64,000 nucleotides of DNA, from NCBI RefSeq assembly GCF_003334305.1, contig NZ_QOWS01000026.1; one strand, written 5' to 3'. A program made the position numbers and the translations under genes. The notes under the pieces were generated by a model. The model saw nothing but the letters and a program-made list of their open reading frames with translations. It did no database searches and was not told where the DNA came from. This document shows, one piece after another, positions 22,884 to 28,592 of the stretch; positions within the stretch are counted from its first letter, which is position 1, and every line of letters begins with the position of its first letter. The stretch comes from Escherichia coli (GTDB taxonomy: Bacteria > Pseudomonadota > Gammaproteobacteria > Enterobacterales > Enterobacteriaceae).

Positions 22884-23127
22884 TCTCTGACGTTTTCCGG
22901 GTGGCGCTGGTCGCCCGGATTACAGCTCATAGGGTGTGACGACACCATCTCTCGTATTCCGCGTTACCCATTCAAGATCATGCCGCAATTGTCTGTTTGC
23001 CTCGTTCTTCCCTCCAACACATCGATAAGGTTATGGGTATGTCACTGATGACAAGCGTATGATTGCCTGATGCGCTGCGCTTATCAGCCCTACCAATAAA
23101 CTTCAATATATTGAATTTGCATGACTT

Positions 23128-23161
23128 TGTAGGCCGGATAAGGCGTTCACGCCGCATCCGG
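23128..23161. repeat. REP element
   Basis: gtaggccggataaggcgttcacgccgcatccggc, between convergent fdhE and yiiF. Confidence 0.75.
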
Positions 23162-23212
23162 CATGAACAACGCGCACGTTGTCAGCAATCTGATTGACAT
23201 CATTTTTTCCCA

Positions 23213-23431
23213 TTACCATTCCTCGCGCAGCTTACGCTGATATTCGACACCATCTTCCTCACACCCTTGCCAGATGCCAGGAACACTGGTTCTTGCTGTT
23301 TGCGATTGATTTATCAGGTATTGATCTACCGCTTCCCTTAATAGGTCCGCACGAGGAAGATTACGCTGCACCTCGAGATCATCAAGTTGCTTAATCACCT
23401 CATTCGATAAATCGAGTAAAATTCTGCCCAT
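23213..23431 (-). CDS. yiiF: Ribbon-helix-helix (CopG-like) small protein YiiF
   Basis: 72 aa from ATG 23431 ([39 protein letters not shown]...); the in-frame ATG at 23455 is an alternative start. Confidence 0.8.
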
Positions 23432-23540
23432 ATCTATACCTGCCAGAGAGTTCATAAATATCTCGCCAATATCATTTTTGAATCTATGGAGAGAAAAGTA
23501 CCCTTGCCGAATCTTTAAAGAAAGCTCATTTACGCATCAT

Positions 23541-23590
23541 TTTTTATTTTTGCGAGGCGTTTTCCAGATACGATGTAACAGTTGCAGTTA
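23541..23590 (-). repeat. Conserved upstream element, copy 1 (before yiiF)
   Basis: Core tttgcgaggcgttttccaga at 23549..23568 (plus strand); shares an extended ~45 bp match with copy 2, including gttgcagtt. Confidence 0.6.
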
Positions 23591-23673
23591 TTATAAGTTC
23601 AAGTAAAACAGCCTTGTATTAATACCAGAATAAGGGCATCTGTTTTTTTATATTCAAGAATGAAAAATTTTTT

Positions 23674-23892
23674 TCATTCCTTATGCTCCTTACACTGATC
23701 ATCAACACCAACTGTCTCACCCCTTTGCCTGCCTCTCTTTGCTTTACGCACCGGAAATTGCTGCCGCTCCAGATATTGCTCAACCGCTTCGCGTAAAATT
23801 GCAGATCGTGAAACCTTACGCCAGCCCCGAAGCTTGTTCAGCCGTTTAATTGCCTCTTCTGATAAATGAAGAAAAACCGTATTCATCGCCAT
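23674..23892 (-). CDS. yiiE: Ribbon-helix-helix (CopG-like) small protein YiiE
   Basis: 72 aa from ATG 23892 (MAMNTVFLHLSEEAIKRLNKLRGWRKVSRSAILREAVEQYL...) with AAGGTGG SD 5 nt upstream. Confidence 0.85.
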   Translation of the reverse strand: MAMNTVFLHLSEEAIKRLNKLRGWRKVSRSAILREAVEQYLERQQFPVRKAKRGRQRGETVGVDDQCKEHKE

Positions 23893-23979
23893 TACCACCA
23901 CCTTACATATATTACTCATTAATGTATGTGCGAAAATTACGCCGGAAAATCATTTAAAAAAAGCGGATTTTTGCATGTT

Positions 23980-24029
23980 GTTTTGTTTTTGCGAGGTGTT
24001 TTCCAGAAATAATAAGAGTGTTGCAGTTG
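23980..24029 (-). repeat. Conserved upstream element, copy 2 (before yiiE)
   Basis: Core tttgcgaggtgttttccaga at 23988..24007, then gttgcagtt at 24020..24028. Confidence 0.6.
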
Positions 24030-24318
24030 TTTCATTTATTACTCAAAAATGGTTTAGTTATCGCCCAGGATGAGTTATGGATGCTATGAATATATTATAT
24101 TCAGGGATGTTTATTTTTTGATTGGATCTTTATTTGCATAATCTGAATGGTGTACCCGAAAAATGTCAGCATCCTAACAGCACCCGGATTTAAGGTGAAA
24201 TTAATCATCCATCACAGACCGGTCAGTACTGCCACCAACCGGTCTTTACTTGTTCATCGTTATAATTTTGTTGGTAACAGTTCGGGAAACAAGGAATTCC
24301 TTCCGGAACCCCCCGGTA

Positions 24319-24411
24319 TCATCCGATAGCATTGACGTCAATCATCAGCGCGACGATGAGTTTTTTTAATCGCATCATAGGGTGGCGACGTTCAGCACGA
24401 TTACGGGTCAT
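24319..24411 (-). CDS. Hypothetical 30-aa ORF downstream of antitoxin gene
   Basis: ATG at 24411 preceded by CAGGAG with a 7-nt spacer; translation MTRNRAERRHPMMRLKKLIVALMIDVNAIG. Below the ORF-track size cutoff; no homology assessed. Confidence 0.25.
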   Translation of the reverse strand: MTRNRAERRHPMMRLKKLIVALMIDVNAIG

Positions 24412-24496
24412 AGCAAAACTCCTGGGCAGGCGACCACTATGCCGCTTTCACAGGAGTTCTGAATGCTAGTGCTTTCTGTATGGCATAACCATGCCT

Positions 24497-24787
24497 CTAA
24501 CGGTTAAGTGCTTGCAGCACATGTTGCGGATCATTGGCAATCGCTCGCAGCAAAGCCTTTGCAGGCCCGGTCGGTGAACGTCGCCCCTGCTCCCAGTTAC
24601 GCAACGTGTCTACGCTTACAGAAATAAGATCGGCAAATTTAGATTGTGACAACCCTGAAGCGCGGCGTATTTCTTTGATTTTCATAGCATCAACTTCAAA
24701 AGTCCGCGAAGGCTGTCGCGTTCCTTCAATAATTTCATTCATCTGGGCCATGCTGTGAGTCAACCGCTCAAAAAGTGCCTTATCCAT
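24497..24787 (-). CDS. XRE-family HTH antitoxin-like protein (HigA-like)
   Basis: 96 aa ORF; ..IKEIRRASGLSQSKFADLISVSVDTLRNWEQGRRSPTGPAKALLRAI.. is a typical XRE helix-turn-helix; start directly abuts the toxin ORF stop. Confidence 0.75.
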   Translation of the reverse strand: MDKALFERLTHSMAQMNEIIEGTRQPSRTFEVDAMKIKEIRRASGLSQSKFADLISVSVDTLRNWEQGRRSPTGPAKALLRAIANDPQHVLQALNR

Positions 24788-25099
24788 TTACCACCTCGTA
24801 TTTAACAACCGGAGCATTGCTTTTTCCTGGGGAGACAGATCATCTTTAATACCCTTACGATAAATAAGCAGTAATCTGATCTCATAATGTTTAACCTGAT
24901 GAAAGTAAATAACCCTGACACCAGCACGTTTCCCCTTTCCTCCTGAAACCCATCGAACCTTTCTTAACCCACCAGTTTCAGGTATTACCTCACCATAGTC
25001 AGGATTCAAGGCCAGGAAAAACTGAAAACGACTGAATTCATCGTCGGTCAGCAGTTTTTGAACATCTTCAGTAAAAATTTCCGTTTCGATGAAGAGCAT
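24788..25099 (-). CDS. RelE/ParE-superfamily (HigB-like) toxin-like protein
   Basis: 103 aa ORF MLFIETEIFTEDVQKLL...GGLRKVRWVSGGKGKRAGVRVIYFHQ...LLLIYRKGIKDDLSPQEK...; motif pattern matches RelE-like toxins that pair with a downstream HTH antitoxin. Confidence 0.7.
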   Translation of the reverse strand: MLFIETEIFTEDVQKLLTDDEFSRFQFFLALNPDYGEVIPETGGLRKVRWVSGGKGKRAGVRVIYFHQVKHYEIRLLLIYRKGIKDDLSPQEKAMLRLLNTRW

Positions 25100-25136
25100 A
25101 ATTATACGCCATTGGCTTAGAGTAACAATCCTTTTT

Positions 25137-25153
25137 GTACGTCATTGACGTAC
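25137..25153. promoter_or_regulatory. Perfect palindrome, candidate operator of the toxin-antitoxin operon
   Basis: gtacgtcaTtgacgtac (8-bp arms) 38 bp upstream of the toxin start codon. Confidence 0.4.
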
Positions 25154-25215
25154 CCTTGAAACCACTAGCTTACTGATAGTGCTCCAGCAAAACCACGTCT
25201 CTGCCGGGTTTGTCT

Positions 25216-25240
25216 TTAGATTTGCGAGGCGCTTTCCAGA
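25216..25240 (-). repeat. Conserved upstream element, copy 3 (before toxin gene)
   Basis: Core tttgcgaggcgctttccaga at 25221..25240, about 120 bp upstream of the toxin ATG, in the divergent intergenic region shared with the esterase gene. Confidence 0.55.
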
Positions 25241-25327
25241 TTTTTCACGCCCGTGAATTTCCCTGTATCCATCCAGCAAAAACGGGTGTATAAGACTGTA
25301 CATTCATACAGCAAAATAAGTTCTACT

Positions 25328-26236
25328 ATGGCACTGGAAAAAGGAATTGCAGAGTTAGTCGAAAAGTTTATCGCTGCGGGTCGCCCCTCATCGCGTCAAC
25401 AAAGTATTGCGCAGCGCAGGGAGGGCTATATCGCCAGCGCTGTCCTTGCGGGTGAGACAGAAACGCGGGTAGATATTCAGACTATCGAACTTGAAGGGAT
25501 GACCTTACGAATAGTGTCGCCGCTGAATGCCCCGACATTACTCCCGACGATAATTTATTACTACGGTGGCTGTTTTGTTAGCGGCGGGTTCGCAACTCAC
25601 GACAACCAGCTGCGCCAGTTAGCCTATTACGGGCAATGTCGGGTTATTGCCGTCCAGTATCGGCTGGCACCGGAACATACTTTCCCCGCCGCCCATGATG
25701 ATGCGCAACGAGGTGCAGAAATAGTCTGGCAACACGCCGAACGACTCGGCGTTGATAAACAACGTATAACTCTTGCCGGTGACAGTGCGGGCGGACATCT
25801 GGCGCTGGTAACTGCTTTGCGATTAAAGCGTGCTGGCGAGTGGCAACCGGCACAACTCATCTTAATTTATCCTATGCTTGATGCGACTGCGCATTTCGAA
25901 AGCTACATACGCAATGGTCACGATTACATCATCACACGCGACACTTTACTGAGCGGCTTTGAGATGTATCTGCCAGGCATTGAACGCAGGCATCCTGAAG
26001 CCAGCCCTCTTTGGCGCGATGATTTCAATGGCTTGCCACCTGTACATATCATTACCGCTGAATACGACCCACTTTGCGATGAAGGTGAAGCGTTGTATCA
26101 CCGCATGACAGGGCAAGGAGTGCAATGCACCTGCCAACGCTACCTTGGCGTTATCCACGGATTTTTTCAGTTAGGTGGTATCAGCGAGGCCGCGCGATCG
26201 GCACTACGGGATGTTGCCTGGAGAGCGGGAAGGTAA
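25328..26236 (+). CDS. Alpha/beta-hydrolase fold esterase/lipase (HSL-like family)
   Basis: ORF track 25253..26236 (GTG); first ATG at 25328 (MALEKGIAELV...). Contains GDSAGG nucleophile elbow, acidic residue in EYDPL and His in GVIHGF; oxyanion-hole region reads YYGGCF rather than HGGG. Confidence 0.7.
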   Translation: MALEKGIAELVEKFIAAGRPSSRQQSIAQRREGYIASAVLAGETETRVDIQTIELEGMTLRIVSPLNAPTLLPTIIYYYGGCFVSGGFATHDNQLRQLAYYGQCRVIAVQYRLAPEHTFPAAHDDAQRGAEIVWQHAERLGVDKQRITLAGDSAGGHLALVTALRLKRAGEWQPAQLILIYPMLDATAHFESYIRNGHDYIITRDTLLSGFEMYLPGIERRHPEASPLWRDDFNGLPPVHIITAEYDPLCDEGEALYHRMTGQGVQCTCQRYLGVIHGFFQLGGISEAARSALRDVAWRAGR

Positions 26237-26251
26237 CTTCGGACCTGGGCC

Positions 26252-26284
26252 CTGAAAAGGTTTTCAGATTGAAAACCTTTTCAG
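26252..26284. terminator. Strong inverted repeat between convergent esterase gene and yiiD
   Basis: 12-bp perfect arms gaaaaggttttc / gaaaaccttttc with loop agatt; no clear U-tract on either strand. Confidence 0.35.
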
Positions 26285-26299
26285 TCAAGTAAAACGCCC

Positions 26300-27289
26300 C
26301 TACTCTTCTTCGTTCCCGCCCTCTTCATACGGGCCAAATGGCTTCGCGGGCAGAACGATATACGTGCCTTCAAACACTGCACCCGGCGTCTCGTCGCCAA
26401 AGATTTCAACTTGCATCTGCACCCGTGCTTTTCGTCCGCGCGCCAGACGGTCGAGATCGCCGCTTAAGGCACCAAGGTCGGCTATCGCATGAGGTTTACC
26501 GCTAATCGGCTTGCTGTAGCGGATATGCGCATCCGCCAGAATAATCGTTCCGCCGAGATGGCGTTCGCGCAGCATCAGCCAGATAAGCCCCCAACCGGTG
26601 AGCGTCGCCAGCGAGAATAAACTCCCGGCAAACAGCGTATGGTGCGGATTCTGATTGCCGGTTTCCGGCATGGTGGTGATAAATTTTTGCCCGGTATATT
26701 GTTGAATGCGCACGCCCATTTTTTCGCTTAATGGAATGTGTTCATACCACGCCTGTTGCAGCTGGGCGCACCAGTCACCGCGATGCAGAATATCATCCAG
26801 AGTGGCAACGGGTTTAATCATCAAAAAATGGCGAATCGGCGTGGTAGTTGGGGTGGTGATCTCCCCCTGATTAATGAATCCCAGCTTGGCGAAAAACTCC
26901 ACCGCGTCTTCACGGGCGCTACAGGTCACGCGCTTAACGCCTTCCTGACGCGCCACCGACTCCAGGGTCATCGCCATCAGCGTTCCTAACCCTTTGTCCT
27001 GCACGTCGGGATGAACGGCCATAAAGCGAATGGACGCTTCATTGTCGGCATTAATATACAATCGGCCTACCGCCACCAGATTACCCTGCTCGTCGACGAC
27101 CATCTGGTGATGCGCCATCGCATCCCACGCGTCGCGTTCCGAACCTTTTGGTTGATGCAGGGGCTTACGCAACATTTCCCAGCGAAACTGATAGTAACGC
27201 TCTAATTCTTCTTCTGTTTGTGGAACCCGAAGGTGATACATAGCGATACTCTCTCTTGTTTCCCGTGACAACCCTGGAAGCTGGCTCAT
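26300..27289 (-). CDS. yiiD: GNAT acetyltransferase / thioesterase fusion protein YiiD (FabY)
   Basis: 329 aa [43 protein letters not shown]..., recognised as YiiD. Confidence 0.92.
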
Positions 27290-27723
27290 ACCTGCAACCA
27301 GAATGTCACGGGGCCATCATTGACCAGCGATACCTGCATATCGGCAGCGAAGCGTCCTGTTTGCGTGTTCATCTCTTGCTGGCGGCAGCGTTCGACGAAA
27401 TAGTCATATAACGCCTCTGCGCGATCCGGTGATGCGCCTTTGGAGAAACTTGGGCGCATCCCTCGTTCGGTATCTGCGGCGAGGGTAAACTGGGAAACCA
27501 CCAGTACACTGCCGCCCGCCTGTTGCACGTTGAGATTCATCTTGCCTTCGGCATCGCTAAAGATGCGGTAGCCGAGCACACGCTCGCACAGACGGTTTGC
27601 TTTCTGTTCGTCGTCATCCTTTTCGACACCCAATAACACCAAAAGTCCCGCGCCAATTTCGCCCGTCACTTCTCCCTCCACGGTGACGCTGGCACGGGTT
27701 ACGCGTTGAATTAATGCAATCAT
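27286..27723 (-). CDS. dtd: D-aminoacyl-tRNA deacylase
   Basis: 145 aa [40 protein letters not shown]...; 4-nt overlap with yiiD. Confidence 0.95.
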
Positions 27724-28592
27724 GGTTCGTCGTCTTCTTCTTGTTCAGCTGCTTGTTTTAGTTTGCGGTATTCCCCGAGAGTGACAGTAATTTCCGCGCC
27801 AAGCAAGACGATACACCATGTCCAGTAGACCCAAACAAAGAGAATGGGGATCACCGCCAGCACGCCGTAAATGAGCTGATATGACGGGAACATGGTGATA
27901 TAAAGCGCGAAACCTTTCTTTCCTGCTTCGAACAGGAGTGCAGCGACAAACGCGCCGACAATCGCGTCGCGGTTAGGTACGCGGATGGTAGGAACAATGC
28001 TGTACAGCAACCAGAAGGAGATCCACGACAACAGCAGCGGAAAAATACGCAGCACGTTGTCGATGACAGTATTGAGATCGCTCGCCCAGCGCAGGGAGAG
28101 CAAATAGGAACTGATCGCCAGACTGGCCCCTGCCAGCAGCGGCCCCAGCGTTAAAATCATCCAGTACACGGCAAACGAGTAAATTTTTGGTCGCGCTCGT
28201 TTACTGCGCCAGATGGTATTCAACGCGCTATCGATGGAGTACATCAACAATAATGCGGTGACGATCAGCCCGCACGCGCCAACGGCGGTCATCTTGTTGG
28301 AATTGGCAACAAATTGTTCGATATACCGCTGAATAACATCGCCAGTAGCAGGCAGAAAGTTGGCAAAAATAAAGTGACGCAACTGAATGCTGACGTCGGA
28401 AAACATGGGAAAAGCGGCGAAAAGCGCAAAAACAACGGCAACCAGCGGCACTAATGAGAGCAAAGACACATAGGCAAGGTTACCTGCCAGGGTTGTCATG
28501 TTGTCCTCATCAATACGTTGCCAGAGTAGTTTTAGCCAGGCCCATAGTGGACGAGTACGGTGCCTGGCTTTGTCCTGAATGGTTTTTAGCAT
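27720..28592 (-). CDS. yihY: YihY/BrkB-family inner membrane protein
   Basis: 290 aa polytopic membrane ORF; overlaps dtd start by 4 nt. Confidence 0.9.

Follow-up and report, generated by a model that had tools for sequence, protein, structure and literature searches.

A family IV esterase of Escherichia coli with a tyrosine in its oxyanion loop and a conserved putative LexA operator

The gene described here lies on a 64,000-nucleotide stretch of Escherichia coli DNA (contig NZ_QOWS01000026.1, assembly GCF_003334305.1), referred to below, at its full length, as the window. The gene order around it is fdoGHI-fdhE-yiiF-yiiE, a higB-like/nadS toxin-antitoxin pair, the esterase, and fabY-dtd-yihY-yihX. 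The coding sequence proposed in a preliminary description of the window, 25328-26236 on the plus strand, matches that of RefSeq protein WP_001162704.1 exactly, and RefSeq labels the product 'alpha/beta hydrolase' only. By its sequence the protein is a predicted family IV (HSL, Abhydrolase_3) esterase of the GDSAG subfamily. A tyrosine occupies the first position of its oxyanion-loop motif, where nearly all relatives have histidine, and a conserved putative LexA (SOS) operator precedes the gene. The features of the coding region are as follows.

25328..26236, plus strand: esterase coding sequence, 302 amino acids plus stop, identical to RefSeq WP_001162704.1.
25556..25576, plus strand: oxyanion-loop motif Y77-Y78-Y79-G80-G81-C82-F83, aligned to the family motif Y-x-H-G-G-G-F/W.
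25562..25564, plus strand: Tyr79 codon TAC, the E. coli-specific His-to-Tyr change; orthologues have CAC or CAT.
25784..25786, plus strand: Ser153, predicted nucleophile in GDSAGG (residues 151-156, 25778-25795), assigned by alignment.
26066..26068, plus strand: Asp247, predicted catalytic acid in EYDPL (residues 245-249, 26060-26074), an invariant column.
26156..26158, plus strand: His277, predicted catalytic base in GVIHGF (residues 274-279, 26147-26164), an invariant column.

The protein matches the Pfam model Abhydrolase_3 (PF07859) over model positions 1-209 of 210 with E = 6.7e-69. A phmmer search matched 125 solved structures, all of them family IV/HSL esterases, the best being Est8 (4ypv, 9e-51) and PestE (2yh2), both at about 1e-50. 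The AlphaFold2 model (predicted local distance difference test score, pLDDT, 96.7; predicted template modelling score, pTM, 0.95) has an alpha/beta-hydrolase core with an N-terminal helical cap, helices 5-17 and 27-41 preceding the first strand, and Foldseek gives template modelling (TM) scores of 0.89-0.95 to the HSL esterases LAE6, Est8, PestE and EST2 (0.92-0.95 for LAE6 and Est8). The solved enzymes Est8 (4YPV), PestE (2YH2/3ZWQ), LAE6 (5JD4), EH1AB1 (6I8D) and EST2 (1EVQ) share with the E. coli protein the fold and the N-terminal helical cap, the GDSAG elbow, the DPL acid, the HGF base, the YRLAPE motif (Y111-R-L-A-P-E116 here) and the position of the oxyanion loop. They are about 33-37% identical to it by structural alignment and differ in the loop itself, which reads HGGG(F/W) in these enzymes and YGGCF in the E. 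coli protein. We know of no SOS regulation for any of these five.

The HSL-family arrangement of GDSAGG, EYDPL and GVIHGF, put forward in the preliminary description, is borne out, and proper alignment retains an intact triad of Ser153, Asp247 and His277 in these motifs. In a 101-sequence alignment Asp247 and His277 are invariant, and Ser153, Gly80 and Gly81 nearly so. Tyr77, at motif position -2, and Asp152, next to the nucleophile, are both kept. Membership of a named NCBIfam equivalog was rejected, as all scores fall under the curated cut-offs: LipP1, a Haloarcula esterase, 239.2 vs 350; chloramphenicol hydrolase, 163.5 vs 500; and acetyl esterase (Aes), 138.6 vs 389. Aes, the HSL enzyme of K-12, has the Pfam family and catalytic arrangement in common with the protein; its structures 4KRX and 3GA7 are distant matches (E = 5e-29 and 7e-28), and the relationship would be paralogous, not orthologous. 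The enzyme is presumably cytoplasmic, because no signal peptide is evident.

In phmmer alignments residues 79-82 (YGGC) fall exactly on the HGGG of Est8, PestE and EH1AB1 (for example, 'lptiiyYYGGCfvsgg' over 'lpvlvyfHGGGwvigd'), confirming that YYGGCF stands in place of the usual HGGG upstream of the nucleophile. The departure from the literal HGG(G/A) family signature amounts to one residue: both glycines are kept and the histidine is replaced. A canonical HGG elsewhere in the protein was looked for in the translation and none was found; this and a misaligned triad are excluded by the translation and the alignments.

The two unusual residues of the motif are of different standing. Orthologues were collected as a set of 114 full-length sequences, 70-83% identical to the E. 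coli protein, from Citrobacter, Enterobacter, Salmonella, Superficieibacter, Lelliottia, Leclercia and other genera. All 116 aligned sequences (the 114 orthologues and two from E. coli) have cysteine at position 82; at position 79 the 114 orthologues all have histidine, and tyrosine is confined to the two from E. coli. Scanning one genome for each species yielded 21 further orthologues, among them those of Klebsiella pneumoniae, the K. oxytoca group, Kosakonia and Franconibacter, and all read HGGCF. More diverse relatives were sampled as 155 aligned stretches, made up of the query and the domains of 150 representatives of 50%-identity clusters. Of these stretches, 15 (about 10%) have cysteine at the fourth motif position, whereas at the first, histidine occurs in 152, tyrosine in two, one of which is the query, and cysteine in one. 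HGGC is, from these alignments, a common minority form, and His79 to Tyr the sole real oddity; the motif was rightly called atypical with regard to Tyr79, and Cys82 is normal for the enterobacterial orthologue group.

The change is a single C-to-T transition at 25562 (CAC to TAC). A 61-mer centred on codon 79 and carrying TAC is matched at 100% identity in 2633 of the 2639 complete E. coli genomes that have this stretch, and the CAC version has no exact match among complete E. coli genomes. All six E. coli alleles sampled carry TAC, although they differ by up to 2.3% in DNA with synonymous divergence (dS) of up to 0.068. H79Y is lineage-specific and fixed in E. coli. As to its age, a pattern-based species scan matched only E. 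whittamii among other Escherichia, and the motif region is deleted there; the same scan gives no more than a hint that the gene is absent from E. albertii and E. fergusonii.

In this family the backbone NH groups at motif positions 3 and 4 make up the oxyanion hole (PMC8767022, PMC10537300, PMC3963902): Gly90 and Gly91 of H88GGG91 in E53 (PMC8767022), Gly129 and Gly130 of H127GGG130 in DphAN1 (PMC10537300), and Gly107 and Ala108 of HGGA in LpEst1 (PMC3963902). A contact between Tyr103, at motif position -2, and Asp173, at nucleophile position -1, braces the loop (PMC3963902). The corresponding donors in the E. coli protein are probably the NH groups of Gly81 and Cys82, which would make the hole itself canonical, and Ala154 NH is probably a third donor. 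Because the donors would be Gly81 and Cys82 and not residue 79, the atoms that form the hole should be unaffected by H79Y. Changes at hole positions themselves can be tolerated in part: Gly-to-Ala replacements in LipN reduce activity 15- to 140-fold without abolishing it (PMC10099132), and in DphAN1 about 40% of the activity remains (PMC10537300).

A natural precedent for tyrosine at this position is found outside the family. An hhalign comparison with Torpedo acetylcholinesterase (97.5% probability) placed Y79-G-G-C-F on the Y-G-G-G-F of WIYGGGF, and GDSAGG on GESAGG; the acetylcholinesterase fragment was verified against PDB 1gqr. Cholinesterases have a homologous alpha/beta-hydrolase oxyanion loop of the GGGX type with a native tyrosine before the two glycines. 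They belong, however, to a different family (PF00135, type-B carboxylesterase) and are much larger, secreted and eukaryotic, and the likeness is confined to one position; it is convergent and no sign of membership. The equivalent tyrosine in cholinesterases is not known to act as an oxyanion donor, a point against any reading in which the hydroxyl of Tyr79 has taken on a chemical role of its own. Tyrosine before the two glycines appears compatible with a working oxyanion hole. Since tyrosine is native there in cholinesterases, and since the gene is under purifying selection (see below), the Tyr79 enzyme is probably still active, perhaps with altered kinetics or stability. In the catalytic cycle so envisaged, Ser153, activated by His277 and Asp247, would attack the ester carbonyl, the tetrahedral intermediate would be stabilised by the backbone NH groups of Gly81 and Cys82 and probably that of Ala154, and a contact between Tyr77 and Asp152 would brace the oxyanion loop. 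The anomaly appears smaller than at first sight, comprising one lineage-specific residue with the backbone of the predicted oxyanion hole intact.

The region upstream of the gene contains four further features.

25221..25242, plus strand: second conserved upstream block, TTTGCGAGGCGCTTTCCAGATT, present in 12 of 13 aligned species.
25253..25327, plus strand: rejected N-terminal extension from GTG 25253; non-coding DNA with the putative promoter, operator and 5' untranslated region.
25289..25294, plus strand: -10-like hexamer TATAAG, noted for its conservation; its promoter role is putative.
25294..25313, no strand: putative LexA box GACTGTACATTCATACAGCA (CTGT-N8-ACAG), ending 14 nt before the ATG.

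The choice between GTG 25253 and ATG 25328 as start codon, initially left open, is decided in favour of the ATG, where RefSeq also places the start. The GTG was rejected because all orthologues begin with MALEKGIA at the ATG, because the interval between the two codons contains frame-breaking 1-nt indels between species and has a non-coding conservation pattern, and because the putative operator lies inside the extension; on this comparison ATG 25328 is the predicted start. A further remark, that the Shine-Dalgarno (SD) sequence is weak, is true for E. coli, which has AAATAAGTTCTACTATG where most orthologues have AAGG or AGGA. Positions 25314-25327 hold the degraded SD of Escherichia (AAATAAGTTCTACT upstream of the ATG, with AATAAG), and B2-type E. 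coli alleles and E. whittamii have AATGAG in its place; an AAGG or AGGA lies 6-9 nt before the ATG in most other genera.

The LexA box is the sole CTGT-N8-ACAG in the window. It was scored with a weight matrix made from eight boxes read from K-12 (sulA, recA, two of lexA, umuD, two of recN, and uvrB). With 18.1 bits GACTGTACATTCATACAGCA is the top site of the 64 kb, the next best scoring 12.0, and it falls within the range of the true K-12 boxes, 13.1-27.1 in leave-one-out scoring. The box is not peculiar to E. coli. Each of the 15 esterase loci fetched first has an exact CTGT-N8-ACAG, and the block TATAA..CTGTA.AT..A.ACAG is invariant in the first eight sequences that were aligned upstream. 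In 22 further species the locus has a LexA-like box 12-15 nt ahead of the ATG, with scores of 11.4-23.8 bits. Overall, every orthologous locus examined, from at least 10 genera, has such a box 12-16 nt before the ATG (the window and loci L003, L011-L014, L016, L017 and L027-L048). The conservation profile peaks on the CTG/CAG and on A/T positions of the spacer, and the flanks diverge. No LexA box was found before distant homologues (54% and 44% identity) in other genomic contexts. The TATAA of the -10-like TATAAG varies hardly at all between genera (CAAAA in K. indica) and abuts the LexA box, so that LexA would cover the inferred transcription start. The quality and conservation of the box point to a putative LexA operator before the esterase and suggest SOS control. 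It had been stated that function and substrate were not evident from context; the conserved box gives a regulatory clue.

The operators of the E. coli LexA regulon have CTGT-N8-ACAG and an A/T-rich spacer in common with this box, which would also lie over the inferred start; the esterase product differs from the repair, mutagenesis, division or toxin functions of the regulon. The second conserved block, TTTGCGAGGCGCTTTCCAGATT, lies about 45-65 nt upstream of the -10-like element; it was matched to no regulator and, by its position, may be an activator site.

The enterobacterial orthologues are found in the same fdhE-fabY interval in Citrobacter, Klebsiella, Enterobacter, Salmonella salamae, Kosakonia, Lelliottia, Franconibacter and others. 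Apart from the 70-83% identity, they share with the E. coli gene a length of about 302 amino acids, synteny, the MALEKGIA N-terminus, Cys82, the triad and the LexA-like box; they differ in having His79 (HGGC) and mostly an AAGG or AGGA SD, where E. coli has Tyr79 and a degraded SD. Their annotations go no further than 'alpha/beta hydrolase', 'lipase' or 'acetyl esterase'. The esterase gene is carried by 2640 of 5426 complete E. coli genomes and is lacking in K-12, where the part of the window from 24290 to 26299, comprising the toxin-antitoxin pair and the esterase, is replaced by 474 unrelated bases (2440-2913 of the K-12 locus). This 474-bp filler occurs in 3083 of the 5426 genomes and, because 2640 and 3083 together exceed 5426, roughly 300 genomes carry both the esterase and the filler somewhere.

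Of the 2640 carrier genomes, 2637 match 80% or more of the length of the open reading frame, and a coding sequence is annotated in every record listed. Among 139 columns conserved at 97% or more in the orthologues, E. coli deviates at two, H79Y and Y211F; the same count, made for each of the other orthologues left out in turn, is 0-5, with a median of 1. Polymorphic codons among the six E. coli alleles comprise 17 synonymous and 13 non-synonymous ones (P = 1e-4 against neutrality), and pairwise omega, the ratio of non-synonymous to synonymous change, is 0.13-0.24. Within-species omega is 0.19 in E. coli (13 synonymous and 8 non-synonymous changes), 0.165 in the His-bearing E. hormaechei (17 and 9) and 0.37 in the His-bearing S. 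salamae (6 and 7), and the neighbours fabY, dtd and fdhE have omega of 0-0.06 in all three. The gene is weakly constrained in all three species and, because omega is similar to that of the His-bearing species, no more weakly in E. coli. Pseudogene status or neutral decay in E. coli is not supported by the length of the reading frame, the conserved columns, omega or the polymorphism.

Several alleles and one orthologue deserve separate mention. The six E. coli alleles show thirteen amino-acid polymorphisms. Rare E. coli alleles alter further conserved positions: G87V, just after the oxyanion loop, in strain 23CRST035 (L010), and H117Q, beside the YRLAPE motif. In Enterobacter sp. kpr-6 (L047), a decayed relative, there is a stop at codon 79, yet a 23.8-bit LexA box is kept.

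The best explanation overall, which we regard as probable, is that the gene encodes an active family IV carboxylesterase with a fixed H79Y and is transcribed from a LexA-repressed promoter. According to this explanation the gene would have been present ancestrally in the fdhE-fabY interval of Enterobacteriaceae, with repeated losses, among them those in K-12-type E. coli and E. whittamii. LexA bound to an operator over the promoter start region would repress transcription by occlusion in all orthologues, with induction upon DNA damage. A single C-to-T transition would have turned the motif histidine into tyrosine and become fixed while purifying selection persisted.

A number of observations weigh against this explanation. 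No enzyme assay was found for the E. coli protein or any close orthologue, and structural alignment gives only about 35% identity to the best solved relative. The literature searches turned up neither mutagenesis of the motif histidine nor 'YGG' variants. The histidine is near-universal (152 of 155 stretches), and in the only two other relatives without it, both apparently decayed genes, its loss accompanies loss of function: P0227 (L015 331-729) has YGGL, diverges and ends at 132 amino acids, and P0128 has CNGC, DGNAGS in place of GDSAGG with loss of the catalytic serine, and is truncated. About half of the E. coli genomes do without the gene. In E. whittamii an internal deletion of about 820 bp has left a remnant (L049 1337-1564) in which the promoter, the LexA box and about 10 codons run directly into the last 65 nt, and the degraded SD is common to this species and E. 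coli. The weakened SD, the absences and the E. whittamii deletion fit a declining importance of the gene in Escherichia. The selection tests rest on few substitutions (8-13 non-synonymous). Finally, a consensus promoter scan did not call the inferred promoter, of which the -35 region is weak.

The near-universal histidine, the decayed relatives, the absences, the E. whittamii remnant and the degraded SD would also be accounted for if the E. coli gene were a crippled relic, in which His79 to Tyr disturbs the oxyanion loop, the esterase is weak or dead, and the gene is drifting to loss in Escherichia. The omega values, about 10-fold above those of fabY and dtd, are in line with this possibility, and the remaining constraint could then reflect only costs of folding or toxicity, or too little elapsed time. 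On the other hand, the reading frame is matched over most of its length in nearly all carriers, alleles that have diverged to a dS of 0.068 still show the excess of synonymous over non-synonymous codons, omega equals that of species that have the histidine, and no more than two of the 139 conserved columns are altered. The LexA box of E. coli is at full strength (18-21 bits), and tyrosine is native at the equivalent position in cholinesterases. A relic of this kind is considered unlikely, with about one chance in four of being the correct description.

The putative operator requires a separate judgement, because the palindrome could be the site of another regulator or a promoter feature conserved by chance, the gene being outside the SOS regulon. 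Chance alone would give 0.62 occurrences of a bare CTGT-N8-ACAG per window. In several orthologues one half-site reads CTGG and scores go down to 11.4 bits; the second conserved block suggests further regulation; and literature searches linking LexA to an enterobacterial esterase found nothing. The box itself, however, is identical at 17 of 20 positions to the sulA box TACTGTACATCCATACAGTA, which was verified in K-12, and 100 shuffles gave no match within the same 3 mismatches. Its score lies 6 bits above the rest of the 64 kb and in the range of the eight K-12 boxes, and at least 10 genera conserve the CTG/CAG and the spacer at a nearly constant distance from the ATG. Imperfect half-sites of the CTGG type also occur in genuine boxes (e.g. 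CCAG in lexA2, recN1 and uvrB). The box is kept irrespective of whether the neighbouring toxin-antitoxin pair is of one type or another or is missing. A regulator other than LexA, or chance, is therefore given little credence.

It is quite improbable that Tyr79 represents a selected functional shift in E. coli, in which its hydroxyl would alter chemistry or specificity as an extra hydrogen-bond donor, through a different acyl or alcohol pocket, or through promiscuous amidase or acyltransferase activity: the change is fixed in every allele despite deep allelic divergence, at conserved columns it is accompanied only by Y211F, which removes a hydroxyl in the cap-region helix 204-214, and residues around the oxyanion motif are known specificity determinants in the HSL family (PMC10099132), but there is no signal of positive selection, drift in an ancestor is equally expected to fix a single change, and F211 also occurs with His79 in 3 orthologues, which weakens the idea of H79Y and Y211F as a compensatory pair.

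The toxin-antitoxin slot beside the gene varies between genera. The toxin-antitoxin pair at 24497-25099 on the minus strand, divergent from the esterase, comprises a higB-like toxin (103 aa) and a NadS/helix-turn-helix antitoxin (96 aa). In L003 and C. koseri the slot is occupied by a VapBC-type pair with PIN and ribbon-helix-helix proteins, in E. hormaechei there is none, and Pseudocitrobacter has an extra HigBA downstream. One feature was recorded on the other side of the gene.

26252..26284, no strand: perfect 15-bp inverted repeat CTGAAAAGGTTTTCA / TGAAAACCTTTTCAG with a 3-nt loop, between the convergent esterase and fabY.

This repeat is possibly a bidirectional terminator; it is AT-rich with no T-run after it, and a terminator scan did not call it. 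An Rfam scan of 23000-27500 found no RNA family near the esterase gene. It gave two sub-threshold matches at 23086-23168, between yiiF and fdhE (ES036/CssrF, 35.9 vs 37.6 bits; naRNA4/CssrE, 38.2 vs 59.5 bits), which are probably repetitive extragenic palindromic (REP)-type repeats. Between the window strain and CUVET20-PYO2 (L006), of which the esterase allele is 97.7% identical, dS is 0.25 for fabY, 0.17 for yihY and 0.12 for dtd (26300-28592), with 0-2 amino-acid changes in these three flanking genes, and is 0.063 for the esterase and 0.015-0.046 for the toxin-antitoxin genes. The far higher dS of the flanking core genes suggests differing recombination histories on either side of the fabY/esterase junction.

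What is new here is an esterase of an established kind, family IV, that is also a candidate gene of the SOS regulon. The motif change alone is a small curiosity, although, in an enzyme that still looks selected, H79Y offers a natural experiment on the role of the histidine of the HGG signature. The regulatory point is the larger one, and the interest of the locus rises through its conserved putative SOS operator. We propose tentatively, and with rather less assurance than an even chance would give, that the gene is a new member of the SOS regulon of Enterobacteriaceae, a LexA-repressed HSL esterase for hydrolysis under genotoxic stress, which in E. coli has acquired a cholinesterase-like YGG. 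Most mapping of the LexA regulon is expected to have been done in K-12, and studies based on that strain could not detect the gene because K-12 lacks it. If the proposal is true, ester or amide bonds would be hydrolysed under genotoxic stress, for example in the inactivation of ester-containing genotoxins or in the remodelling of metabolites or the envelope. Many antibiotics and natural genotoxins induce the SOS response, and an SOS-induced hydrolase would be a plausible, if speculative, candidate for a drug- or toxin-modifying enzyme. If the box is functional, major pathogens would have an unexpected class of enzyme in their SOS response; the loci with the box include those of Klebsiella pneumoniae, Enterobacter, Citrobacter and about half of E. 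coli.

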